Source: Schmidtea polychroa
Lineage: Eukaryota
Reading direction: 5' to 3'
Assembly: GCA_044892525.1 (NCBI GenBank)
Contig: CM097885.1
Span: 10,108,001-10,172,000 of the forward strand
Length of the DNA stretch: 64,000 nt
Part shown: in pieces, positions 11,441-61,900 of the stretch
How positions within the stretch are numbered: position 1 is the stretch's first letter
Layout: each line of letters begins with the position of its first letter
Position numbers and translations under genes: made by a program
The notes under the pieces: model-generated
Seen by the model: only the letters and a program-made list of their open reading frames with translations
Database searches by the model: none
What the model was told of the DNA's origin: nothing

Positions 11441-12978
11441 ACGATGTAAAGGATTTGATTGAATCTTTAACAATTTCTACGAGTATAAGTAACGAGGATT
11501 TGCTTGAATATTTATTCAATAATTACTGAAATTGATGGTAATTTTGGTTTATTTTAGGTTTTTTATTTTGTTTAGAAACTATACTGCAGGTTTTGATTGA
11601 TAAAATTGAAGATTTCTATCCGAATTTGAACAAATACTTGATAAGTTGTGCTCCAGAAGTTGTGTTTTACAGAATTTATGAAATCACTGGAATAAATGTT
11701 ATAGAATTAGTTCATATTGATCATTTCTACGATTACATGCTACACTGATGATGTTGAAAATTGTGATTTTTGTACAAATAATATACGAGATACTAGTGGG
11801 AATAATAATTGTACCTGTTTTGTTAATCTACAGAAATGAGAAATAATTCATGTGCTACTTGCAAAATTGTAAAAAATCTATTGTTGTAATAAAAAATAAA
11901 ATATACATGTATAAAATTATATTTGTTTTGTGATACAATAAATCATTTCGAAATTTGTTAATTAGCACAAAGTATATTAGTTGATCACGTTTTGATCATG
12001 CCTGTCAATTGAAACCTTGTTTACAGTGGAATTAATATAAATATCTGGTTCAAATCATTACTGATTACACCTACAAATAGATTATCAAATTAAAAGTTTG
12101 TTGTTCATTTCAAATATTCTATTTAATTGTTTTTTAATTTAGGAGTATTGAATAGGAAAAATGTTGATTCCGCTCAAGAATTTGGAAAACGGAAATTTAA
12201 AGAGGTGACATTATCCTTGGAAACATTATTCATTGTTCGAGTAAATACAAAAAAGCCAGTAGAACTTTTACAATACAAACTAGATTATTTGTATTGTCCA
12301 ATTTCTTATATATTTAAGGTAAGTTTGTATAAATTATTTTGGATTTTATTTTTGCGAATCAGTAACTCTGGAAAAGTTTTTTTTCCAAAATCAAGTTCGA
12401 CCATAAGATCATATTGGAACAATTTTTTCAGAGAATGAACGAAAATATGGAATTCAATGAAGAAGAAATGTTTATCAAATGCGATTTGGACGTAATTCCC
12501 AATGGAGAGAAGATGAGTAAAATAACTTTCATGGTTACAGTACTCATTCAAGGATATAATGTAAGCAGAGACCAAATCAAACCAATTTGGAAGATTATAA
12601 AAGCCGAAGAAAAGTTTGACGACGATCGTTGTATAGTTTGAATTTTATTTTAATAAATCTTTATTAGTCTTTTGTGTTTTTTAAATAATAATGACATAAC
12701 TTTTATAAAAACAACTAAATCAAGTTTTAAATTTATTAATTATCACATGTGCAGTTTTGATCTTTACGATTTCCTTTCATAATGTAAGATGTATTTATAT
12801 AAACTATTCATATTTATAGTATTTATATTTTATTGTTTGAATGTTGAGGTATGTTGAAATTGATTGTTGAAATTGTACGAAATATTATTTGGATTTTAAT
12901 TAATTCCCCAGAAATGAATTAAGAAAATACTTTGTTTCAAGTTCTTTTTAAAGGAGGCGAAACTCAGTGATAATAATG

Positions 12979-14440
12979 AACATATGGATTTTTCCGTTGA
13001 GTTCATTCCTCCTTTCTAGCCGGCGACCCCCAGAAGGGATCATAGCGGTCCATATGTTACCACAAGGAGTTGCAGTCATGACGAGACTTATTATCCGAGT
13101 TCAAGTGACTAAGCGTGTTTCCTAGTCACGTGGCCAATTGGAATCTCCATTCCAATTATTGTCGTTATATGCACATAAATGTACATATAACTTGCCTCAA
13201 TCCAACCAGGTCAATGCACAAAAGGATTCTGCTATCTAGTACGACTTGAGGGTAAGATTTACTGAGTTATTAATTCAATTTTATACCATATTTGCATATA
13301 GTGTAATTCACTAAATATCTTCCCTTAATCATTGGTAAAAAGAAACAAAACATTTTCAAAGTGCCAGAAGTCAGCTTCCATACGCAGCTCCAGTATCCCA
13401 ATCGTTACAAAAGAGCCACCAAGCACCGGCAGTCAACCACTATAAATGGCACTAAGTAACCACTTCGTAACAAAAACCCAATGGAGTATGCATATAATAT
13501 ACCGAGTACGAACATAAAGGACTCAGTTTCATATGCATACGTCGTACTTCTTGTCCGGTGGAAAATAGTTTATGCTCACCGGTCAAAACCAGTTTATAAT
13601 GCTTTAAAACTAACTCCACCCTTTCGGGCTCCCTTTCGAGATCCTAGGCAGAGAATGATAGTCGGATTCCCATAAGTAATATCACTTTATTCGATTCAGT
13701 TTGACCAGTATTATACCCACCCAGATATAACTTGGGTTACCCACAATAGTTCCAAGATATTCCTTCCGGTAATAATATGCCAGTGATATTCCATATTTTG
13801 TCAATTTCACAATATGTGCTCCATTTCAACTCCTTGCGGAATTGAACTTCACACAAGGAAATTGCCAATAGACCAAATCTAATGCACCTGTTCTTTAGAC
13901 TTTAGTCTTAGAAAATTGTACCGGATTATGAATTGTACACAACTAGTCTTATTCGAACTTTGCGGTACCAACTTGGTTTATTATCTATCGGACCCCTATT
14001 TCCTAGTAGGATCAAAAGTTCCAACTAGAAATCGTCGGTTAACCTCCTCAAATCCATTTTCATGAACCCAAAGATGTTAGCCTAGGAGCCACTACCCGGG
14101 ATAGTTAGTTAGACACCCTTGAGTAACACTCTCTCACACTTAACGGTTGCGAGTTTGCACAAATAATGTGTTATTCAATTCATCAATTCCCAGTGCCCAA
14201 ATAGAACACCATGAATTGTCAGTATACTCGGGCAAACCCTTAGGATTTTAATAAATCAAACTAATATCCAATCTATATGATTCATTCATTAGGTTAGACC
14301 TTTCGATTCTCATAGAACATGAGTTATCTAGCTGATACCTCAATGAGGTTTGCCCACCAATAACATTTTGACAAACTGTCCCTGTTAAGGGAGTCATGAT
14401 TGCTTTTACTTGTTTATCCGGTGAATTACTTCTATATAGC
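12979..14440 (-). ncRNA. Candidate large structured non-coding RNA (possibly an orphan rDNA 5' ETS or an element-associated RNA)
   Basis: More GC-rich than its flanks, no credible ORF, about ten clear hairpins with GNRA loops and G-U wobbles that favour the minus strand. Confidence 0.6.
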
Positions 14441-14562
14441 ATTCATTAGATATTGAGTAAAATTGATATCAAAGTTATTTATCAGCATATGCATTAACAA
14501 TACTAGTAGTGTAAATATAGATAATATAGATAATGATAATATTTATAAAACAATAACAAAAT

Positions 14563-16105
14563 TACGGTTTATGAAGTAGGGGCACTCGATCTTGTCTGTC
14601 TCCACCAGTTACTCAGGCTTGACACGTAAATCTGGATAGGGGCTTCAAGCGGCTCACAAACACTGTGCGTTTTTCGCCGGATTTATATTGCCTAACCCTA
14701 CGGCGAGGCATCCTAAACAACTACCAGATAAAGGGACTTTTATTCTTTACTACAAGGGACTTGGAATGTAGACCAATCGTCCACCGTAAACACTACTTTA
14801 ACATTGGAACAGTCATGTGTTTCAGACCAGTGTCTTCAACGAATATGGAAATTGGAACTAAAGTCGACACCACGCACTATATAGTCGCGAAGTCCAGCTA
14901 AGCGCCTTTAGGGACAAATCATCACATCATGCTTGGTGAGATTTATTCTCAACAAGCTCTCAAAGGAGCCTCATCCACTTGGTACTTACCTGCCTTCTCA
15001 TAGTTTCTGCTATAAAGATTCTCGTTGTCGTTGATGATCTGGACGTCCAGAACCATCGCTTGGTTGTCTTTAAGAAGAATAAGATCCGGTTTGCGGTAGC
15101 TCTCCTTGTAGGGTATAATCGGTTCAACTAATGCCTCCCACCCTTTGCTCCGTGCCGCAGACACTATATAATTAACTAACTTATTGTGCCTTTCTATTCT
15201 CAGACCATACAAGCCTGGGCACTTTTGAGCAATGTGGTTAAAACTACAAGGGTCATCGCAACCGACTTTACATTTAAGCGGTCTTTCTGCGTGCATCATA
15301 CTGATCCTAGTTGGTGTATATATTAAGCTACTTCTTACTTTTACTGCATTGATGAATGTGCGACCAGTCATCAATTTCTCTCTTGCAGTTAACCATTTGT
15401 GTGCGCACTGCACTTCTTTGGCTTATCTTAGCCCCTTACCTACTAACTTACCATATAGGGCCATAGTAGTGGCTTCGTAAAATTGTTTCTTGGTGGCTAT
15501 TGGCGTCTCTTGTAAGTATAACGGTTTGTTCCACTTTGCCAACTGTGCTTTCACGGCTTCGTTCTCGGCCAGTGAGCTTATCCTCTCATCCCTGCATTCT
15601 TCAATTCTTCTAAGCCTATCACGCTTCGCAAATAGTACCTCTGCCAACAGGGCTGGCACACCCAGCCCCCCATTTTTTACCTTACTATTAATAAAGGATG
15701 AACACGTGTCGGTTGGCAGGTGTAACCATTTGCGAACCGCGCCTCTAGTCATTTTATCCAATACCCCCAATTCTGTGGTATCAGTTTCCCCCAGCACAGC
15801 CTCATGTAAGATACCTGGTATCAAAAAATCTCTTAGCACTTCTAATTTTTGTTGCGGCTTAATAGGTGCCTTCGTAATATTCTCTAGTCGTTTAGTATAA
15901 AGATTGGAAAGCTTTTTAGTTGTACGACCAAGGGCTCCAAATTGGATTTCCAAATACTTATAGTAATCGTCAGCTGACATGGCAGGGAACTCTTCCCCAT
16001 CAGCACTTACCTTTTCATTAGTGACCATCCATTTTTTCTGCTTACCGTCCCCTCGCCCTATAATGGAGGCACTCTTACTTGGATTTATACTAAGGCCATT
16101 ACATT
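14563..16105 (-). mobile_element. 5'-truncated R2-clade non-LTR retrotransposon (RT C-terminus, zinc knuckle, restriction-like endonuclease, ~300-nt 3' UTR)
   Basis: GLSINPSKS..GKQKKW, YKYLEIQFG, ITKAPIKPQQKLEVLRDFLIP, RKWLHLP..GGLG, CKVGC..HIAQKC..RH, RKPDL..VLDVQI. The ORF tail DLSLKALSWTSRLYSAWCRL* ends at ~14858; stops and frameshifts are present. Confidence 0.9.
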
Positions 16106-16109
16106 AAGG

Positions 16110-19100
16110 CTGGGCTCTACAATATTTCTTTTACACAAAGCATTAAAGAAAATAACAATTTACTTAGGATATTATTCTAGTAACAACTGGAAACTACCCA
16201 ACATAACTGGTGTCAAAAGTCCCTCGCATTCGACGATTTTCTTCAATCACTATGTCTTTCAGAATACTTATTATAGAAGTATAAAGGATAGTGATTCTTT
16301 TGGTTGAACACAGTAAGCCATATCCATGAACAAACTCATCTTTTGTTAGCACAGCAAGTAATAAAAAAACCATCAACAAACTAATAATGGCAACTGACCA
16401 AACAAATCCAACAAACATATCACAAACATCCAATAATGATGAAAACACACATGATGGAAAATACGAATTACAACTATAACTCAAACACCAACACGGATAA
16501 TACACACACCATAAACTCATTAATTAACCCGAGAACAAACATCCAAAACTACTTTAACGACGAAAATGGGACACCCCAAAAATGGCTAGAATCCGCCAAA
16601 TTAACCCTAACCTTATCGGAAATAAAGTCGACGAAAATGCTTTGTTCAAACATGATCACCCCACTCCCAAGTAGCAAACTGAACGAAATAGATGACCAAA
16701 TTGAAGAAATTGCAAAGAGAGAAGACCCGTTCAACAAACTTTGAAACGTTCTTACAAATAATAACAAAATCAATAGGAGGAAAATGCTGGAATCATGTCT
16801 CAATAATACACAACTTGACGACAATAAACCAACAGATTTCCTTCGCCAACTAAAACAAAAATTGGAGTACCTCCAAACAAATATAACTAATTCTGGATCA
16901 AATGAATTAGTAAAAGACTTTTTCATGCGAGGAATGCCGCCAGAAATAAGACGTATTCTCGCAGCCAGCAGCAATTCGGACGTAGAAACGTTAGCAGACA
17001 TAACAGATAAAATCAATGAAGAAATTTATCCACCTATATGCAGCACTCAAAACTACAACAGAAACAAAACAAATCACCACAACGAGCCAAGCAACAAAAA
17101 CACTGAACCAAACGAAACAACAAACCAACTAATAAACACTCTGATTAACAAATTCGATGAAATAATTGTCGAAAACAGAATTAGCCGAAATAGAAGAGAA
17201 ATACAACAAGCAAATTTTCAATTCAAACAAAAATAGAGACCTACACAACAGAAACAATTTCAACACAAACCAACCATCAGATAATCATAACGGACAAAAC
17301 TATAACCAATCATTAGACGGAAACAACAGGCAGAACTACAGCCGCAGACAATACCTAAACAATCACTACAGAAACCGGGTTAACTCCCCAAACCGATACA
17401 ACAACTACCGAAACAACAGCCTAGAAAAAGAATCAAAAATCCAGTTTATAAACAAAAACTACTGCTACTTTCACAACAATTTAGGTGACAAAGCATATAA
17501 ATGCACAAAACCCTGTGAATATCACAAAATAGAGCATAGAAAACTAAAACCGTCACTGTTAATAGCACCCACATTCAGTGACAGAAACAATACATTTTTG
17601 GTGCACACAAATAAAATTGACCTTCTAATCGACACAGGCTCCGTCATATCACTACTGCCTCACTACATGTACAAAAACGCAAAAAACACAGAAAAATCAC
17701 AAACAGTCGCAAATGGCTCTGGTATAAAAATATTTGGCCAGCACACACTAACCTTAACAATAAATTCACAAAAATACAACTGGTCATTCACAATCGCAGA
17801 GGTACAACAATCAATAATCGGAGATGATTTCCTAGCACACTACAACTTAATAGTGGACTGCAGAAACAAAAAATTAATTGAAAACCTCACATCAGACAAG
17901 AAAACCAGCAAGATTAAAACGACAAACATTTCAAAAGTTGACATCGGCGTGATACAAACAAGCACACCATATATTAAAACAATCAAAGCAATTGAACACG
18001 TTCCAAAAATAACTGCACTTCTGGCAAAATACGATAAGCTCAAATCACTCCACTGAACACGCCACCGAAATTAATGGAAACCCAATATACGCAAAAGTCA
18101 GACAACTAGACCCACAAAAGACAAACATCACGAAAGAAATTTTCCAGGAACTACTGGAAAACAATATAGTAACACATTCAAATTCAGACTGGTCATCAGT
18201 ACTAATGCTCAAACAAAAGGCAAACGGGAACTGGAGAGCTTGCGGAGACTACAGAATGCTCAACAAAATGACAGAACCAGATAACTACCCACTGCCGATC
18301 ATAAGAGATATAATAAATAGACTCAAAGGAGCAAATTTTTCTCAAAAATTGACCTGCAAAAAGCTAACCACCAAATTCCAATCAGAAAGGAGGACATTAG
18401 AAAAACAGCAATCGTAAGACCAATCGGCATGTTCGAATACAACCGAATGCCATTTGGTTTACGAAATGCAGCAGCAACATTTCAACGTTTCATGGATCGA
18501 ATCCTGAAAAACAACAAAAATACAATCGCATATTTGGACGACATATTAATAGTCAGCCCAAATAAAGAATCTCATCTAATAGACATAGATAAAGTGTTGA
18601 AAACACTAAACACAACAAATATCAAAATAAACTCCCGAAAATGCGAATTTTTGAAAAAAGAAATTAATTTTCTCGGGCACACATTAGAGTCGAATGATTA
18701 GACGAAAAGGGTACAACTCCTATCGAGAAAAAAATCAGTTCAATCCAACAATACCACTCCTATATACCAAATTGCAGCCAACTTTTAGCTACCCTAAACG
18801 ACCTAATAAAAACAAGACAAAACTGGACCGAGAGAGCAATCAAAAACTTCGAGAAAGCACAAACAAGCTTATCTCAAGCCACACTACTTGGATACCCGGA
18901 TCCAAAACGAGATTACAACTTAGCAACAGATTGTTCCAGATTTGCAATTGGAGCAACTCTTTACCAAGACAATGAATTTGGTAAAAAGTCTATTGGTTTT
19001 TTCTCTAAGAAATTAAAAATTTACCAAATAAGATATTCTACATTCGATCGAGAGCTGCTCGCAATTCATGAAGCCATAAAACATTTCCAACATCTACTAG

Positions 19101-21100
19101 AAGCAAGGAACTTCAAGATTTATACAGACCACAAACCTCTTACAAACGCGATAGAAATGAAAAATCCATCGCCTAGACAAATATGAAAATTAAAATTACA
19201 TATAACAATTCAACTGTACAATCAATTATATCGCTGGAGCAGCAAACATAGCAGCAGACATATTGTCAAGAACCGAAATTTTTGAAGTCGAAACAATCAA
19301 AAACAAACAAGTGGAAACACTACCAACAAAACATAGCCTAAAACTCGAACAAATCAACGATTGCTGGTACGACATCAGTAAAAAAAATAAACCAAGAATA
19401 CTCCCACCGAAAGAAAGCAGGAATAAGTGAATCTCAAAGATACACAACATCAATCACCCAGGAAACAAGGCCACATGCGAAATCATCCACAACAAATACA
19501 TATGGCCAAACATGCGAAAAGAAATAAAATATTTCGTCAAGACATGCAAAAGTTGTCAGATGAACAAAACTGCAAAAATAACTAACGGTTGAAAAAGTAA
19601 ATTTCCCAAGCAGCAAGCTTTCGAAACAATACACATAGACATAGTAGGACCATTACCACCAAATAACGAATACAAGTACTTACTAACGATAATAGACAGA
19701 AAGACAAACTGGTTCGAAATATTCCCACTGAAAGAAATATCCGTATAAAACCTCTGTAACAACATCGAACTAAACTGAATAGCCCGATATGGACAACCCA
19801 AAACTTTGATAACAGATCAAGGGAGACAGTTTGAGTCAGAACTATTTAATGCCCTATATAAAAAATATGAAATAAAACGTAACAGAACCACTTCTTACAA
19901 CCCACAAGAAAAAAGGGAAAATCGAAAGATTACATAGGAAACTTAAACAAAGCATTAGAACCAAAGAAAACGACAGAAATTGGCTCACCGAATTACCGAC
20001 AATTCTACTGGGGTTAAGGAACACCCCCAACTCAATCGACAACGACAGCCCTTCCTTTGCAGAGAATCAATCCTCCCATCTCTCGAAAACAAGACAACAG
20101 ATAATACAGAAACAAATAAACAAACAACTAACAAAAATAGCGGAAACATAGAAAAAGACCCAAAAGGAATTTTAGAAAGGAAACAAGACTCTAAATTCGA
20201 CGGAAAAACAGTACTAACAACAGATTGCATCCTAATAAAAAAAACCATTCACAAAAGGTTTTGAATACAAATACGAAGGACCATTCAAATTACTTGAAGT
20301 CAACAAAAACGTAGCCACAATAATCAAAAACAACAACAAGATGAAACTAAACATAAAGCGAATAAAACCCTACCACCAGAACCCAAAATACAAAACATAG
20401 ACTCAAACACAAAAAAAACACAACCAAACCACAAAAACATCACATTCAATTACAAACACTTAATAAAACTATTCGACAAAGACACAATAATCGCACCTCC
20501 ATACAAAAAACAATACACTCATGCCTCGCTATACGGCTGCTCTTTATACGGCTGCTCTTTATACGGCTTTTCGCTATAACGGCCTACTTTAATTACGGCA
20601 CTTTTCGATTTACGGCCTAAAATGTTTCGTTATACGGCCAAAAATCCTATTGAATTTATATGGAATTGTATCAAAATGTATTTGATTCGTTATGCGGCGT
20701 TTCGCTTTGCGGCCAACTTTCCTGGAACGTATCTAGGCCGTAAAGCGAGGTATGAATGTACAGTGAATGCATTAAATAAAAACTCACACAAACAGAACAC
20801 AAGCACAAACAAAAGCAGTTGTACAGTTTTTATTTCGTTGTAATTACGGAACAGTTCGTAATTTTTTTTTGTTTTATCCAGGTTGCATATAAAAAAGATG
20901 AAACAAAATAAATACAAAAACATACAAAAAACATACAAAAAAAATTAATAAAATGCTACCGAATGTTAATCTTCATGTTACTTTTTATATATGCATGTTA
21001 ACCTCCGATTTTAAAGGGGAAAGTTATGTACTATACTGTTATACTATTTTTTTTGTTTCATATGGATTGTAGTTTTAATAGTCGCGTGTTGCTTGTAGAA
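16110..21100 (+). mobile_element. Near full-length decayed Ty3/gypsy LTR retrotransposon
   Basis: LTR end ACATAAC then PBS-like TGGTGTCAAAAGT (~16208), gag with CYFHNNLGDKAYKCTKPC, protease LIDTGS, RT WRACGDYR / MPFGLRNA / YLDD, RNase H, integrase HIDIVGP, polypurine tract AAAGGGGAA and LTR start AGTTATGT at 21022; many frameshifts. Confidence 0.92.
20516..20758. mobile_element. Tc1/mariner-pogo-type MITE inserted in the gypsy 3' region
   Basis: TIRs CACTCATGCCTCGCTATACGGC / GCCGTAAAGCGAGGTATGAATG, TA on both sides, internal TACGGC repeats. Confidence 0.85.
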
Positions 21101-27900: not shown

Positions 27901-30900
27901 AACGTTTAATTAAAATCACCAAATGGAAAATTTTATTATAACTTTTAATTTTTATCGACAACATGGCATTTTTATTTCAATGTTATCTGAAAATCGACTT
28001 TCCTCTATCGAATGATGCATAATTTTTCCAATTTGGACCATTAATTCTTTTTAACTGTTATAATAAATTAAATATGGAAAATTATTTTAATTAAATTTAA
28101 TTGAGTTATTGAATTAAAATAAATATGAATTAAATCACACATTGAATCTTTTTTATGAACAAACAAATCTATGGATAATTATGTATTTTGATTGATAACG
28201 TGATTCCGTCATTTTTGACGGTTTATAGCTAGTTTTTTGATAAAAATCTACTAAAATTCAATAAAATTAATTAATGATATCGATTTAACCAGACATTTTC
28301 GATAGATTTAAATTGAAAAATATGTTTGGATAATTGAATTTAACGAGGGATTCGAATTTTCAATGCCGACTTCTTATGAATATTCAAGTGATCCCAAAAT
28401 GTTGAATTAACCCTGGATTGAATTAATTTCAATTATATATGAAGTTTCGTAGCATCTTCGAGTTAGTATATTGCTGTACAAGATCCAAATATTCGACTAA
28501 GCTCTGGGTTGTACAAATCTTCTGTCAGAATACTATAAAGATTTTTACTGATGTATTTCAAGTGCTAGTCTACTTGTTTAGCATCAAACTGAATCGTTAA
28601 TAATTACTTTGTCCTCTCTGATGGCGCTGCAATCATTTTGGCGTTCCATGTTTGTCTAGATTTGGATGAACACCATGAGTTTTAATGTCGGTGTACCTAT
28701 TTAAGTTTTTTTTTCCCAAACGTTATATCTCGTTTTGCAGTGACTTTTTGAAGAAAACAATTTTGTGAAGAAGCCGCAAACTTAGTTTGTTTTCCAATGT
28801 GACATAGTTCATTTAATTACAGTTTAACAGTATTTATCTCCATTTTATTATCTTTCTATCAATTTTATTCCATAACTATCAATTAAAAATACTTTTTTAG
28901 AATAAGAAAATATTTAAAGATAATATGGAAATATAATTATATTTTAGTGTTAATATCGTGTTATTTCGTTCTTATCCGTTCTGGAATTAATTAAATATTT
29001 TTTAAATATGACATAAACCAGGAAAACTTTAAATTACAGAGACCCTAACCCAATTGCTTTCAATAAGTGGCGTAATTTCAAATTCTGGGCACCCTTGCAA
29101 GATTTTCAAAATGCCCCATGGCAATCTGATAGGCAATAATTTTATATTTTTATATTATAAAAAACTATTTTATTAATTTATTTAAAGAAACTTTTTTAAT
29201 AAATATCAACAACGACGGCAGTCGGAAACTTGGCAATGAAACTAATGACGCCAGCATAGATCAAAGATGGGAAGTGAAACCAATTGAGTGAATTAACTGC
29301 AAATTCCAACGTCACCTGGCGATTATAATATGCCTTCGACTATGAGTCACTGCTCACTAGCTTAAAAGAAAGCCTAAAAAATATGCGCCGACCACACGTA
29401 AATAGTAATATTCTACATCATCTTCCTGCCTGCATTATTTATTGATTTTACAAGGATTATAAGGAGTTCAATAGGAGTTTCGGTTTCCGGCTTTCTGTTG
29501 TGCATTTATTAATTAAAATATTTCATTTTTCAGGCTTGAAAATGGAGCCCTTTTGCCTGGCCCCTCCGTATTTGCGGGCCCATAGTTACGGTATTGCTTT
29601 CAATGCTATGTTTAAAGCCATCCTAGATCCCATTTTATTTTACATTTGATAAAATCACTGTTTAAATGTTTATATAGTAAATTTATTATAAAGTATATCT
29701 TTATATTCAGGAATTACTAAACAAGTTAAACGAAATCCTCGAATGTTCTATACATCACGGAATAATGATAAATCCTAAAATGTTTTCATGTCAGCATGTA
29801 TTTTGTTATAAATGTATAAAAGACTACTTTAAAACCACTCAACCTATTTTAATTTGCCCGATTTGTAGAAGAAAAGAAAATATAGATGGAGTTGAAAATT
29901 TACCTCCGTCGTACACGCACAATAAACTGATGGACATATTAAAATTAAAACCAGAATCAGATGCTGATGATAATGACAGTGAAAACGATTCAAAATGGAA
30001 AATTGAAAATATTCAGAAAAATATGGTTAACAATTCTCATTATCAACAGGTTTATCCAAATGATTTTGAAAAGGTTCGTAACATTTTATCACAGAATAAT
30101 GAGAGTGATTTTTCATTGGTTACTGCAAATAACCTAAATTCCGAATCCAGTCAAATCGTATTCGTTGATTCGTGCACCAATAAAATTACTGTTTATTCCG
30201 CTTCCGGCGAATCGGCTTTCTCCATTTACATTGACAGTGAAATTGTAATTCCTCGCTATATTCGAGTCATTGACAACAGTTTATATCTTACAGGCAGCAT
30301 AAAATATGCCAATCAAACAGTTTCTGTTTTTCTTCAAAGTGATTTCCTTGGTAATGTCATTGAAAAATCAAAATTTAATATAGCCGACTCTTCCCCGTTT
30401 TTGGGATTCGACTTCAACGAATCTAAGAACTTATTCTACGTTTGCATGCCTGAAAATAAAACGATTCAATTATTTGATAGGTTTCTTGAAGAATCTAATT
30501 ATTATATCGATACCCATGAAAACTCACCGGAATTCATTGCGTTCAGTGAAAAGGAAAAACAGCTCTATGTTTCTTGTCCGCTTAATCGACGCATTTTGAT
30601 ATTGAATTCGGAAACTTATAAAACAATTTCAACTGATGAAATCGTGCCAAAAATGATTTTCGTCACCGATGATGAGAAAGTTTTATTTCTCGATCAGAAA
30701 GCGAACAAAATTATTTGGATTAAAAGGATAAATGATCACTTATTACAACACCAGCTTGATTTGACGTATTTTCGAAAAGATTTACAGATTAGAACCTTTT
30801 ATGCTTTGTCTTTATCGATGATTGTTATTGCTACCAATGATCAGATTTTTCTTTACCAATTAGATCAGAATTTATCAAGTTCAAATAGAGCTCCTACATT

Positions 30901-30916
30901 TTGTAATTTGTTATGA
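24913..30916 (+). CDS. RING-finger + beta-propeller (NHL-like) protein, TRIM-like E3 ligase paralog 1; predicted exons 24913-24933 and 29711-30916
   Basis: Main exon ELLNKLNEILECSIHHGIMINPKMFSCQHVFCYKC..CPICR followed by beta-rich repeats; acceptor ttcag at 29710; tentative phase-0 first exon MEDLTKS|gtaaga; AATAAA at ~30949. Confidence 0.85.
25132..26430 (-). mobile_element. hAT remnant carrying a nested hAT MITE (25504-26183)
   Basis: Minus-strand TLPVSTCTAERSFSPLKYLKSYLRNT; nested element with TIRs CAGAGCCGTAGCTA / TAGCTACGGCTCTG. Confidence 0.75.
27801..28232 (+). mobile_element. Non-autonomous Helitron (3' terminus clear, 5' end tentative)
   Basis: Hairpin CCGTCA-tttt-TGACGG (28206-28221) followed by CTAG|T at 28229-28233. 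Confidence 0.55.
29065..29596. mobile_element. hAT MITE
   Basis: Perfect 8-bp TSD CTTTCAAT (29057-29064, 29597-29604); degenerate TIRs AAGTGGCGTAAT / GTTACGGTATTG. Confidence 0.8.
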
Positions 30917-55900: not shown

Positions 55901-58900
55901 TTATTATCTGATTTTTATTCTTTATTATTATTGTTGGGTTTTATGATACCAAATATTAACCGTTGGTTACTCTGACTCCACGTGTTCCAAAAATTAATAA
56001 ACATAACTCCCAACGTATATTTATTTTACAGAAAATTTACAATTCTCACTAAATAACGACACTTAATTAACCACACTTTTCTTACAATTCTCGACCTTGA
56101 ACAATTTAAAAATAAGTTTCACCTTTTGTTTGATTCCGCTCTCTGATCCGAACTCTTTTAATAATCCTTTCTGACTCCTCAATTCCTCTTATTATTCTTT
56201 TTCTTCTTTTATTTTATTCCTCGAACTCCTATCGTCTGTTTCTTCTTCCTTACCTAAGGCTACCGCCGATTATGTGAATTTTGAATTTCCTTATATACTC
56301 TCATAATCGTTGTAATTGCCCTATTTTCGACCTAATTGGTTTTGACTTCTTTAGTTATCATTTCCTAATTAGTTATTTCTGTTAACCCTCTTTGTAATTC
56401 CCCTTCTTTTGTTTACCCTCCTTTATCCGGCTGTTTGGATAATTGCCCTCTGAATTCCTCGTTTGTTTATCCTTCCAAATTGCCATGCTCGGGTTTTCTT
56501 CATCGCTCGGGTTCTTCATTGGCTCGGGCTTCCCATTAGCTCGGGTTACCCATTAGCCAATTAATTAATTAATTAATATTTTGTGTTTTTCCATATTTTC
56601 CTGTTTAACGACCCTTTCTAAACATTTTCTAACAATTTCTTGCTCGCTGTCTTCTTCACCATCCCATAATCAACCCCTCTCCCGTTTTCCAACTTCAATT
56701 TCGATAACTTTTCACTTTATTCCACTTCCTCAGGTTTGCGCATTTTCCCATTTCGTGTCTGATTGTACCCTTTTATAGTTCTGTTTTTATCATATCTGGT
56801 TAACTATCGGTTCACGCGTCTGTGTGCGCTTGTTACTTTTTTTGGATGGATTTGTGTGCGCACACAGACGCGGAAAATTGTGGAATTATAATTTCGGTTT
56901 TTATCTTTTATTATTAATATTAAAATTATTTTTAAATTTTAAGTTATTTTTGAAATTATTTCTGGAATTATTTTTGGAATTATTTTTAAGATTATCATTA
57001 CCATTAAAATTACAATTATAATTATTTTCAAAGAATGATTTCAAGTTTTTATTGTGTTCATTTTCATAATCATCTTTTATTTTAAAATCATTTTTAATTA
57101 AAAAATATAAATCATTCTTTGAAAAAATATCATAAAAATAATTCTGATAATTAAAATCCTGTTGCAAAGATCTTCTCATCACATTGGACAAGGTAACTAG
57201 AGACTTTGCATGTTTATCCTCTTCGAACTCCTTCTCGTCCTCATGGTCCAGGATCATCCTATCATATATTGGTATGCACTGGAACTCAAGCTCCTGATAG
57301 TGCTGCAAGCTCGGTTTTGTAGTCTATCTTTTTGCCTGAAAACAAGTCAAAAAGATATCCAAATATGTAAAACTTATTCATTTCGGCCCCAGTACTGTGA
57401 ATGTTGTATTGCAGTAATTCAAATAAGCTCTCGGGACTTTTACTTGTTTATCCAAAATTTTCTTCACGTTCATTAGATCTATAAAATACTTTAGTTTTTA
57501 ATTGACACTTGCATAATTAAGTAATAATAAATTTCAATGTAAAGAATACGCTTGTTTTAATGAAGAATTTTTTTGAATATCGGGTTTGAAATTTGTCGTT
57601 CGATTTTATAATAATAAAATTCCCAATTGTGGATCGGTTATCTGCGTTCAAGTTTTTGATTTGACAGCTTTCATTCTAGAAAAAGTCTGAGTTTACTCTT
57701 TTTGCATATTTACTTCAATATTATTTATAGGTTTAAATAAATAGGATTTTGAAAAATTAAAAAATTTTAATTTTCTCCTACAATATCTTTAATAAAATTT
57801 TAGAAAAAATTTTGGTTCATGTATACTTATTCCCAGGGGGTGCTGGTAAATTCGTAACAACCGGCTCGCATTTTTTTTATTGCCAACAAACGGCTCGCGC
57901 GAGCCGGCTCCAGCACACCACTGCTGTTTCATAATATCCTGAATTTTCAAGTGTGCGTTAGATAAGGAATGTTCTTTAATTTTTTTGCGAAGAGAAGCCT
58001 GTCTACTATCTTTTTCAGTTCCATTTGGAGTTATGGAACACAAAATCCATTGCTTAGAAACATGTACTTTTTTTTCTGTCTCAGTTGCTAAACATTTAAT
58101 TTGCGAACAATCTTTACATCCTAATTTGCCATCTTTTATTATCAGCCATTTTTATTGTTCTGTAAATAAACTTACTTGCTTTTCATTCCAACAATCAGGC
58201 AATTGGGTATTAATATTGGTATTTGAAAATAAATCTTCCTCGATTTCTACAGGTACAACAGATGTTTCTTCAATATGTTCGTTAAAATCAGGTGTTATGA
58301 GATTTGAGTTTATTTGTGTAACTGCAGAATTGTTTAATCTGTTGCCAATTGTTTTTTCAGTCATTGTCGGCTGCGGAGCAAAAAACGACAATAAATTTCC
58401 CTGTTTTCTCTTCATTTTGGGTAAACAATTACTATAATTTACATAAAATTAATATTCCTACCTGCAGTTATACGACAGGTTTCAAATTGAAGGTAATTGA
58501 AGCAGCCGAACGTATCGGAAATAGAGGAGCATCTAGAGAATATGGACTCAGTGAAGCTAATGTAAGGCATTGGAGAAATAATAAAAATACTTTAAAAGAG
58601 TGCAGATCCTCTACAAAGGCCCCTGGCAGAGGGAGGAAATTATTTTTTCCTGACGTGGAGAAAAAATTGGTTGAATATGTTCATGAAAGGCGATTTTCAG
58701 GTTCCTCAATATCCACTGTAGAAGTTAGATTGAAGGCTTTAGAGTTAGTCAAGGAGATGTATCCTGGTTCAATATTTAAAGCCTCGGCGCGCTGGTGCCA
58801 GGTCTTCATGAAAAGGAATGATATTTCTATAAGAAGAAGGACTTCGATTGCACAGCGACTGCCGGATGATGTAGAAAATAAGCTGCTCGACTATCAGAAA

Positions 58901-61900
58901 TATATAATAAATTTAAGGAAAAGGCATGAATATCCAATTAGTTGCATAGCAAATGGGGATCAGACTCCACTAAGTTTTGATATACCTTCATTTCAGACAT
59001 TGGATTTCAAAGGAGTCAAGTCCGTACCTATTAAAACTACAGGCAACGAAAAGAATCGGTTTACAGTTATGTTGGGAGCTTATGGTGACGGCAAGAAGAT
59101 GCCGCCTTATGTAATTTTTAAAAGAAAATCTTTACCAAAGAACATTCATTGGCCAGCTGGTATGATTGTTAAAGCACAAGAAAATGGATGGATGAATGAG
59201 GAGTTGACTAAGGATTGGATTAAGACTATTTGGTGTAATGATAGAAAAGATGAATTTCGAAATTCAAGGAGGTTACTGGTATTAGACGCATTTAGATGCC
59301 ACCGTATGCCATGCGTAAAGGAAATTTTGGCAAAAAACAAAACAGATCTTGTGATTATTCCTGGAGGGATGACCGGGCAACTCCAAGTTATGGATGTAGT
59401 TTGCAATAGGCCATTTAAACAAGAGATGCGAAAGAGATGGAATGAGTGGTTTTTTTCTGGAGCTCCATCATTTACTGCTTCTGGAAACAGACGAAAGGTT
59501 GATTTAGAAACTATTTGCAAATGGATTCAATTATCATGGGATGCAGTTAGTGAGGCAATTATTATCAAAGGATTCAAGAAATGTTGTTTGAGTAATGCTA
59601 TGGATGGATCAGAAGACGATGTTATTTGGCAGGACGATATATCTGATGTAAGGAATGAGGATGATGATATGGAAAATGAATTAATCTTTGAAGAAGTGGA
59701 CGAGTCCATTGAGATTGAGAATTTGATAAAAAGTGAAGATGAAAATAATGATCTCTGTAATGAAAAAAACATTCTGTAACTAATAAAGAAATATTTTGTA
59801 TTAATTTATGCTTTATTTCCCTTGCCCATACCGGGTTTTCAGAAAATTTTCTGAGTAGGAAAAAATATTTCCTGTTATACCCATGTATAAGACGCACCAC
59901 GATTATCATCCCCAAAAGTGATGAAAAAAAAGCGTCTTATATTCGGATAATTACGGTAATTTGTTTTAATATATTTTAATAATAATTATTACTTACCTAT
60001 TAGGAATTGTAAATTTAGTTTTAATATTTTTATATTAAACTAGCTAGCTATTAATTTTATTTTATTAAACTAAAACGTGTACACATTAATACATTCCAGC
60101 CTAATATGAAAGACTATGTAAATTGTTATAGCAATACAAAACTATATATAACATAAATTCAAATATCAAAGCTTACTACCATCAAAATAAGTAATTAACG
60201 GTTAGTTTTAAATTTTTGTTTGGCAATTCAATTAATTTAACAACCAGCTCGGCGATTTTTTTTATTGCCAACAAACGGCTCGCGAGAGCCGGAGTGAGCC
60301 AGCTCCAGCACACCACTGCTTATTCCCCCTAGCGCAGTGTTTCTCAACCCAAAAAGCAGTACGGACCGTAAATAATCTCAATTTTTTTTCACGACCCGTA
60401 AATTCAGTTTGACTTTACAATCTAATAAAATTAATAATTTTAAAAAAAGTTAACAGATGAACAAAATATTTATTATAAAAGGATCAACAATAACGAAATC
60501 AAAACAATTAGAAAAATAATTTTATAAATTAATGTGATTGTTGTTGCTCTTTCTCTCGTACCAGTTTGTCTATTCTTGGTTTTAAAGAAGTGATAGCAAG
60601 TCGCAAAGCAGGGCCAGTAAATAACCTGTTTCTTTGCTTCGTTTTAATAATTGACATTGCTGAAAATGCTGATTCACACAAGTAAGTTGTAGAAAAGGGT
60701 AATAAAATGTGAATGGCAATTTTTCTGAGGGCTGGATATTCCTCCTTGACTTTTATCCAAAACTGTGTAATGCTCATTGAGTTAAACATTGATTTCAATC
60801 CCATATCTGATGATAACTCAATCAATTTTTCTGCTTCTGTGTTTGAAAGGTTGTTTTGTTGGTGATCAAGAAATGGATTGGATATCCACATGTTTCCAAA
60901 TCGAACATCGTCATTAGGTGGATAGTAGCTAGGGCCTAGCGGGAATAAGTATAAATGTGTAAATTAATATTATTAATAATATTAGAAATAATATTAATAA
61001 TTATATACAATTTTGTTACAGATGTCTAACATTAAAATAATATAAAATAATATAAACATTACAAGCTTGTAATGTTTATATTATTATATACAAATAACTA
61101 ATAAATCTATAGTAATTAATAAAACCAATGACAGCAAACGAAAGTTATATAATAAATTTATTTTCGAGGGATACTTCAGAAATAATTTCATTTTTTCAAA
61201 GTAAAGGAATTTTACGAAGTAGAATGAAATGTGAAGACTGCTCTACACAAATGATGATATGTATATGTAGAAAAGTAAGTGACGGTAAAGTTTGGAAATG
61301 CATGAATAAAAATTGTTTGAAATATAAATCTAGTTGCTCCACTAGATTTGGAAGTTTCTTTTTTGACTCGCGTCTATCATCGAGAACATTATTAGAACTT
61401 AGTTATAGATTATCTAATGAAGAAAGAATACAAGGAGTATGCAGAGAATTGTCAATTAGTAGAAAAAGTGTTGCATTTTCCCCCACGTTTATTTCCTTTA
61501 TTTCAGCGCTTGAAACTGCGTTGTGATCTCCAATCCCATGGCAACGCCCAACTTAACAATTTTATCAACAACATGCTGATCTTGAAAACCATCTTTCCAT
61601 ACATTTTTCCATGCAGAATTCATTTTTCGGGTGGTGACTTCGTTCCATGCCTTATCAATTAGCCTTAAACAATGGAGGATATAAAGTGATTTTTCAAAAA
61701 ATCACGCAATATAAGCTTGGTCTCTAACGTGACCTCAAAATATCTTGGAAACTGTGCTTCTGTAAACAGTTTCTTTAAGTTATAAATTACTTGTTGATCC
61801 ATGGGTTGAATCAGTGGAGTTGTATTTGAGGGTAGATATGTAATGCGAATATAATCGTAATCACCAGTTAAAGCGTCTTCTAAGCCAGGGGGATGAGTAG

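Follow-up and report, generated by a model that had tools for sequence, protein, structure and literature searches.

The window studied here, the whole 64-kb stretch from Schmidtea polychroa, contains on its minus strand a block of densely structured sequence without an open reading frame, which raises the question of what kind of RNA the block represents. A preliminary description placed it at 12979..14440 and considered an orphan pre-rRNA 5' ETS, a leader or passenger RNA of the adjacent R2-like element, and an undescribed large non-coding RNA. The structured, ORF-less character is borne out, no stop-free frame exceeding 71 aa (plus strand) or 63 aa (minus strand), but the true limits are 12,957-14,383 (minus strand, 1.43 kb; referred to as block X). 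It is nearly certain that block X is the distal part of the 3' UTR of a 5'-truncated, ectopic copy of an R2 retrotransposon, related to a family denoted R2-A. The features of this copy are as follows.

12957..14383, minus strand: block X, distal R2 3' UTR, structured RNA; 79-83% identity to the 3' UTR of intact rDNA-inserted R2-A; stand-alone homologues in L060, L071, L073 and a 671-nt insert
12957..13070, minus strand: terminal double pseudoknot, with helices 13064-13069/13009-13014, 13049-13057/12980-12988 and 12999-13004/12960-12965
13071..13345, minus strand: 3' multibranch domain, which houses most of the hairpins named in the preliminary description (13105-13129, 13136-13157, 13164-13191); RNAalifold covariation
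13657..13670, minus strand: 14-nt motif that matches, at 13 of 14 positions, a 28S stretch ~150 nt upstream of the R2 site; junction of the 671-nt insert with 28S
13884..14269, minus strand: 5' multibranch domain with long-range helices and a degraded HDV-like fit at 14066-14131; covariation in 8 copies
14384..14492, minus strand: decayed copy of 28S, approximately -139 to -3 upstream of the R2 site; local alignment and BLAST
14493..14556, minus strand: AT-rich linker, read from the sequence; an AT-rich linker occupies the equivalent place in R2-B and B2
14557..14856, minus strand: proximal 3' UTR, approximately 300 nt; 94% identity between the window and R2-A; families A and B share 76% identity over 134 nt
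14857..16101, minus strand: broken R2 ORF (RT end, CCHC knuckle, restriction-like endonuclease); 91% identity to the intact R2-A ORF

The genomic position of X bears directly on the question. A genome search with the block gave at least 60 matches, and the best 40 of 232 candidates were scored. In contigs spanning whole rDNA units, the matches are confined to the R2 site of the 28S gene, and none lies upstream of 18S; uninserted units lack X, at least 40 units being intact at the R2 site. The 3' junction of X is the exact R2 site of 28S in all ten family-A rDNA copies read, intact or truncated. In contig C714, an X homologue directly follows the stop of a 925-aa reverse transcriptase (RT) frame and terminates at the 28S R2 site. 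Every X copy whose 3' end was read has one common terminus, located either at the R2 site or where an ectopic copy is inserted, and the dispersed copies (window, L002, L060, L063, L071 and L073) stop at this terminus or a few bases off.

The dense structure and the association with rDNA contigs would be expected of an orphan 5' ETS or of an independent host non-coding RNA gene. The ETS reading fails, however, because X sits only inside 28S at the R2 site, never upstream of 18S across whole units, and because the units intact at that site carry none; nor is X a free-standing gene, because all the 3' ends read share the R2 terminus. Considering also the lack of an Rfam match, these two readings may practically be dismissed, and X is no new class of host RNA. 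A group I intron at the LSU site was likewise rejected, since 28S bases are lost at the 5' junctions and since no Rfam match was found at E values up to 10. In the window, no Rfam family reached the gathering score, and a search of X, of its homologue in R2-A and of L060 at E values up to 10 gave nothing beyond chance-level matches. The earlier statement that mature rRNA motifs are absent is wrong at the edge, where 14,384-14,492 is a decayed 28S fragment. A passenger of the adjacent R2-like element had been proposed correctly in kind, except that X is a trailer (distal 3' UTR) and not a leader.

Family R2-A is represented at full length by three copies with an upstream 28S junction. In C220, the element is 7,626 nt long, with a 5' UTR of 2,728 nt, an ORF of 1,001 aa and a 3' UTR of 1,894 nt. 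The ORF contains an RVT_1 domain, and the element has the organisation of an R2, namely a single ORF with an N-terminal zinc finger, an RT and a C-terminal restriction-like endonuclease. Its translation contains what we take to be one CCHH motif and a CCHC/KPD region. The protein relatives include one named R2, and no relative above 37% identity was found in the protein search. In the 5' to 3' direction, the 3' UTR consists of approximately 300 nt of proximal sequence, an AT-rich linker, decayed 28S sequence (-139 to -3) and block X. The linker is possibly the old tail of the R2 RNA. The 3' UTRs of families B and B2 are 1,452 and 1,275 nt long, respectively, with the same terminal fold, and internal duplications are present in B (122 nt) and A (90 nt). 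In the 5' UTR of R2-A (L078, C220:70296-73022, minus strand), several 300-nt segments have folding z-scores of -3 to -5. Upstream of R2-B (L034/L055, C654) lie tandem repeats of ~700 bp and a partial 18S in place of the 28S junction.

The R2 copy in the window (12,957-16,101, minus strand) is truncated at its 5' end, broken and ectopic. Its ORF has an internal stop and deletions near the C-terminus, and neither an rDNA flank nor a target-site duplication was found around it. The 5' break adjoins a decayed LTR-retrotransposon remnant with protease-like and RNase H domains (16400-20500, plus strand). Elsewhere in the window are a 411-aa frame with a RING finger at its N-terminus (29681-30916, plus strand) and a Tc5/pogo-type DDE transposase frame (58322-59779, plus strand). 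In C1:0.35-1.3 Mb (L049, L050, L065, L067 and L068), many broken R2-A-like copies without X are interleaved with another retroelement; the break in L065 is 5 nt into X.

The structure of X was assessed first from single sequences. All eight hairpins named in the preliminary description are present and able to fold on the minus strand. The assignment of the minus strand as the RNA strand holds: seven of the eight are more stable there, the CCGGUG stem alone being slightly better on the plus strand; the tandem GAAA hairpins (13619-13640) are both present, but the first refolds otherwise in the lowest-energy structure. When compared with shuffles in overlapping 150-nt segments, the minus strand of X has negative z-scores in 17 of 20, five of them at -2 or lower, but segments outside X also attain -3.3 and -3.6. 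Four long segments of X give -5.0, -1.6, -2.9 and -2.2 on the minus strand, and the controls -0.1 (proximal UTR), -1.6 (ORF) and +1.4 (flank). The single-sequence folding of X is thus only moderately unusual.

The decisive support for RNA structure comes from the covariation among paralogous copies and the strand asymmetry of the consensus fold, which uphold the proposed selection on RNA structure. The consensus fold energies are -53.0 kcal/mol on the minus strand versus -19.7 on the opposite strand, and -34.9 versus -4.7 kcal/mol. The sample consists of paralogues of one genome, several of them dead, and the pair-change counts lean to the favourable side, because the alignments that supplied the counts also served to predict the structures, and because the shuffles take no account of relatedness: in the last 390 nt (12957-13345; RNAalifold, eight paralogues), both sides are changed in 20 of 88 pairs, with 92.5% of the cells paired, whereas re-pairing columns of the same pair type yielded at most 15 double-changed pairs in 2000 trials. 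Similarly, both sides are changed in 19 of the 72 pairs of the 5' domain, with 93.4% paired (eight copies, 57-89% identity). The middle of X aligns poorly because its modules differ between lineages; a single helix of 18 pairs is predicted there, four of them double-changed. In primary sequence, X of the window and of R2-A are 85% identical, as compared with 84% at fourfold sites, so that X diverges as fast as fourfold sites do. Therefore, it is the pairing, rather than the primary sequence, that is conserved in X.

The last 110 nt contain two helices and a third that crosses both. In this structure, which was chosen by eye, both sides are changed in 11 of the 16 pairs counted and 95% of the cells are paired across nine sequences that include families A, B and B2; none of 500 shuffles gave as high a count. 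The crossing helix has 7-11 bp in eight of the nine copies, the exception being L060, in which the 5' strand is deleted. The double pseudoknot is thus common to three R2 lineages (A, B and B2). R2 proteins bind the 3' UTR and prime on nicked 28S DNA, and those that have been studied recognise a terminal pseudoknot or stems; in the avian R2, the last ~65 nt, consisting of a pseudoknot and a stem, are described as sufficient (PMC12222951, PMC11601368). By analogy with the avian element, and in agreement with the dispersed copies that end at this terminus, the terminal fold of ~110 nt is likely the handle for protein binding and for the priming of reverse transcription.

The sequence immediately upstream of X carries a record of a different kind. 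When aligned with the second of the two rDNA types in the genome, which are ~90% identical in 28S (C425 and C654 versus C220, C21 and C322), the 28S remnant scores 61 in the window, 60 in R2-A and 78 in L002, as compared with shuffle maxima of 35-38; the scores against the first type are lower (34-53). BLAST gave 25 of 27 identical positions and 74% identity over 69 nt. The presence of two rDNA types fits the pattern described for geoplanoid planarians (PMC10991399). In both types, the usual TTAA that immediately precedes the R2 site has C for its second A, while the UTR remnant retains TTAA. Between the window and R2-A, the remnant is 84% identical, which equals the fourfold sites, and it therefore behaves as a fossil seam. 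X starts immediately after it, at the position expected for an R2 5' junction. The remnant is not clear in family B (score 40 versus a shuffle maximum of 33), and none was found in the B2 3' UTR by local alignment.

X also occurs without the R2-A gene. A 671-nt piece occupies the R2 site by itself in 21 rDNA copies, joined to 28S at the 14-nt motif with a loss of 146 nt of 28S, an arrangement that may have arisen by microhomology priming at the motif. The 5' junction is identical in all nine copies read of the 21, dinucleotide count aside; this uniformity fits passive amplification, which probably explains the 671-nt copies. Dead R2 copies in a stick insect are described as amplifying by unequal recombination (PMC4370867). 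The insert resembles the elements known as SIDEs in having no ORF, an R2-type 3' end and a location at the R2 site, but it lacks their varied 5' junctions; the older X lineages do differ in their junctions. In L073, a 28S junction is followed by a 100-nt leader and an internally deleted X. In L071, which likewise retains a 28S 5' junction, a 28S leader is followed by 72 nt of the 5' UTR of an R2 of another family, termed the poly(A) family, and then by X with a B-like end. L060/L077, outside rDNA, consists, in this order, of a 70-nt 28S leader, a complete R2 of the poly(A) family, a short remnant of downstream 28S, a shared leader and a full X that ends on non-rDNA. The 5' end of an R2-A-like copy matches the shared leader of L060 at 92% identity over 89 nt. 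The poly(A) family has ~44% protein identity to R2-A and forms a separate clade in the protein tree. No full-length stand-alone X was found in the rDNA array, all eight candidates for the 5' part of L060 being dispersed.

Several observations on these leaders and inserts may be added. The same 70-nt second-type 28S leader precedes the poly(A) family at two sites outside intact rDNA flanks (L046:7510-7580 and L077:1623-1693). A leader of ~100 nt (L060:7640-7760, L075:4000-4125 and L076:3320-3420) occurs with a stand-alone X, at the 5' end of an R2-A-like copy and in a tandem pair next to a 28S junction, and it folds as a three-way junction or a long hairpin; a hammerhead, considered by eye in this leader, was dropped since its core does not fit the consensus. 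In L051:8854-9505 (C348), a 652-bp poly(A)-ended insert lies in the opposite orientation ~88 bp upstream of the R2 site, and is probably another 28S-targeting element. In C714 (L021:2000-3060), a first-type unit contains a second-type patch of 210-300 bp with the 671-nt X piece, ahead of a truncated R2-A, a layout that represents exchange between the two rDNA types. The same unit has a 92-bp downstream 28S duplication.

Taken as a whole, the probable explanation is that X, the distal 1.43 kb of a 1.9-kb R2 3' UTR, likely ends in a handle of ~110 nt and was likely captured together with its 28S leader from an older protein-less insert. X likely began as a non-autonomous, SIDE-like insert. The ancestral X would have occupied the R2 site in a 28S gene of the second type, being co-transcribed with the upstream rRNA. 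The R2 reverse transcriptase would have primed on X, copied ~140 nt of the 28S leader, and then passed onto R2 RNA, either by jumping between templates or by reading on into an R2 located farther upstream on the one transcript; the resulting chimera would have taken X as its 3' end. Anything upstream in the co-transcript might be copied along, as is suggested by L060/L077 and C714, which, together with L071, are present-day analogues of the capture steps. Template jumps of R2 in vivo have been reported (PMC3414825), and upstream 28S is described as often carried on R2 RNAs (PMC3774820). In the present-day element, the upstream domains of X, if held folded, may allow the terminal handle to fold correctly and keep the long RNA compact and stable. 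The copy in the window would be a dead, off-target, 5'-truncated product of the same reaction.

The direction of descent of X is not fixed by its tree, because the tree has no outgroup. In it, the X attached to R2-A forms one clade (77-87% identity), to which unattached X is 57-73% identical; the greater diversity of the unattached copies speaks for capture. The long UTR may predate the capture, because long UTRs with this end also occur in B and B2, in neither of which a 28S remnant is clear, and R2-A may, for the same reason, have re-captured a truncated relative of its own end. A rather unlikely alternative is that the long UTR arose by duplication and insertion within the R2 A/B lineage. 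The X copies without an ORF would then be R2s that were truncated or had lost internal parts and that rDNA recombination multiplied passively, and the 28S remnant would stem from a single event in which the element re-captured its own shortened 3' end. Besides the shared end of the B and B2 UTRs, it draws on the internal duplications of 122 nt in B and 90 nt in A, on the uniform junction of the 671-nt insert and on the behaviour of the dead stick-insect copies. It does not easily accommodate the X lineages off R2-A, which are deeper than the attached clade and yet have kept their pairing, or the joining of X with three distinct leaders as well as with a second R2 family.

The capture reading may also be carried further than the data strictly require. 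X might be an old independent parasitic RNA of the rDNA locus, 1.4-1.7 kb long, with its own folded domains and a buried ribozyme, which borrowed R2 proteins, hitch-hiked with two distant R2 families and was lastly adopted by one of them as its 3' end. This is regarded as a tentative proposition, more doubtful than not. If it were true, an autonomous retrotransposon would have exchanged its recognition RNA by swallowing its own parasite, and the 28S-like pieces in other R2 3' UTRs, such as those of fish, would be scars of the same event.

According to a related proposal, the 5' domain of X acts, or once acted, as a self-cleaving module of the HDV type, which would cut X out of the transcript of the rRNA or the R2 and let it move as an RNA of its own. 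With a widened descriptor, a complete fit is found in L060 (one of 14 regions, and none of 200 shuffles), and the loop, the GG and the C at the catalytic position are retained in most of the eight copies. However, the descriptor was widened after the candidate had been seen, its first form having given no match in 12 regions in a run with no positive control. The fit is intact in L060 only and broken in the window copy (14066-14131); over the eight copies it shows no covariation, with 79% paired and 139 of 500 shuffles scoring as high, and the covarying helices compete for the same bases. No copy begins at the predicted cut. Even the loosest descriptor leaves X of the window and of R2-A unmatched, while it matches the 5' ends of two of the three R2 lineages tested (R2-A 5' UTR, L075 and L077 matched; L046 and L041 missed). 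This loose post hoc descriptor gives a candidate core ~126 nt into the R2-A 5' UTR, with P3 compensated in L075, but also matches four of 40 shuffles of 1.5 kb, and Rfam found no HDV-like ribozyme at the R2-A 5' end. A self-cleaving module in X is therefore considered improbable.

Comparison with known systems shows both likenesses and differences. The R2 3' UTRs of Bombyx, finches and turtle, like X, follow a single RT-endonuclease ORF, end at the 28S site and are structured, and a pseudoknot near the 3' end is described for the avian and turtle elements as it is found in R2-A. In contrast, their lengths are 248, 292 and 210 nt, respectively, as compared with 1,894 nt in R2-A; the covarying structure of R2-A extends over 1.43 kb, whereas about the last 65 nt suffices in the R2s studied; and the pseudoknot topology of R2-A, a one-zinc-finger element, differs from that of the avian and turtle elements (PMC11601368, PMC12222951). 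The R2 SIDEs of Drosophila are likewise ORF-less at the R2 site with an R2-type 3' end, and the R2/R1 hybrid SIDEs combine pieces from two elements, as is also the case in L071 and L060 (PMC3414825). R2Dwi_SIDE, as described there, measures 529 bp, has an active ribozyme at its 5' end and varies in its junctions. X, in contrast, reaches up to 1.7 kb, the ribozyme in it is only a candidate, and an autonomous R2 also relies on X as its functional 3' end.

Fish R2s, like R2-A, contain decayed 28S sequence within the 3' UTR, and more than 100 bp of upstream 28S is lost at some of their 5' junctions, as compared with 146 bp at the 671-nt insert; the fish piece has been proposed to pair with the target (PMC5035012). 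Unlike it, the remnant in R2-A is separated from the 3' end by 1.43 kb, changes at the neutral rate and marks a seam, while the 5' junction of full-length R2-A is canonical. The planarian elements R2-1_SM, R2-2_SMed and R2NS-1_SMed are likely from the same host group (PMC5035012). Copies of R2NS-1_SMed are shown as spanning 5.7-5.9 kb (PMC5035012, S1 Fig), which hints at long UTRs in that clade. In the literature searched, neither a planarian R2 with a long 3' UTR nor a SIDE from a planarian was found described, although Repbase and the supplement of PMC12247875 may contain such sequences; the available text of the surveys and reviews PMC12247875, PMC13580325 and PMC12203849 has no account of a long UTR of the R2-A type.

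R2 3' UTRs, SIDEs and 28S-like pieces in fish R2 3' UTRs are thus already known. R2 proteins are under development for gene insertion, and their specificity depends on a short 3' RNA fold. In this context, R2-A is a naturally occurring R2 whose 3' UTR is six to nine times as long as those studied and ends in a new covariation-supported terminal fold that has been kept across three lineages. The analysis extends SIDE-like elements to a flatworm and offers a testable account of the 28S-like sequence in R2 3' UTRs. The visible seam suggests that the recognition RNA of an R2 may be exchanged wholesale.
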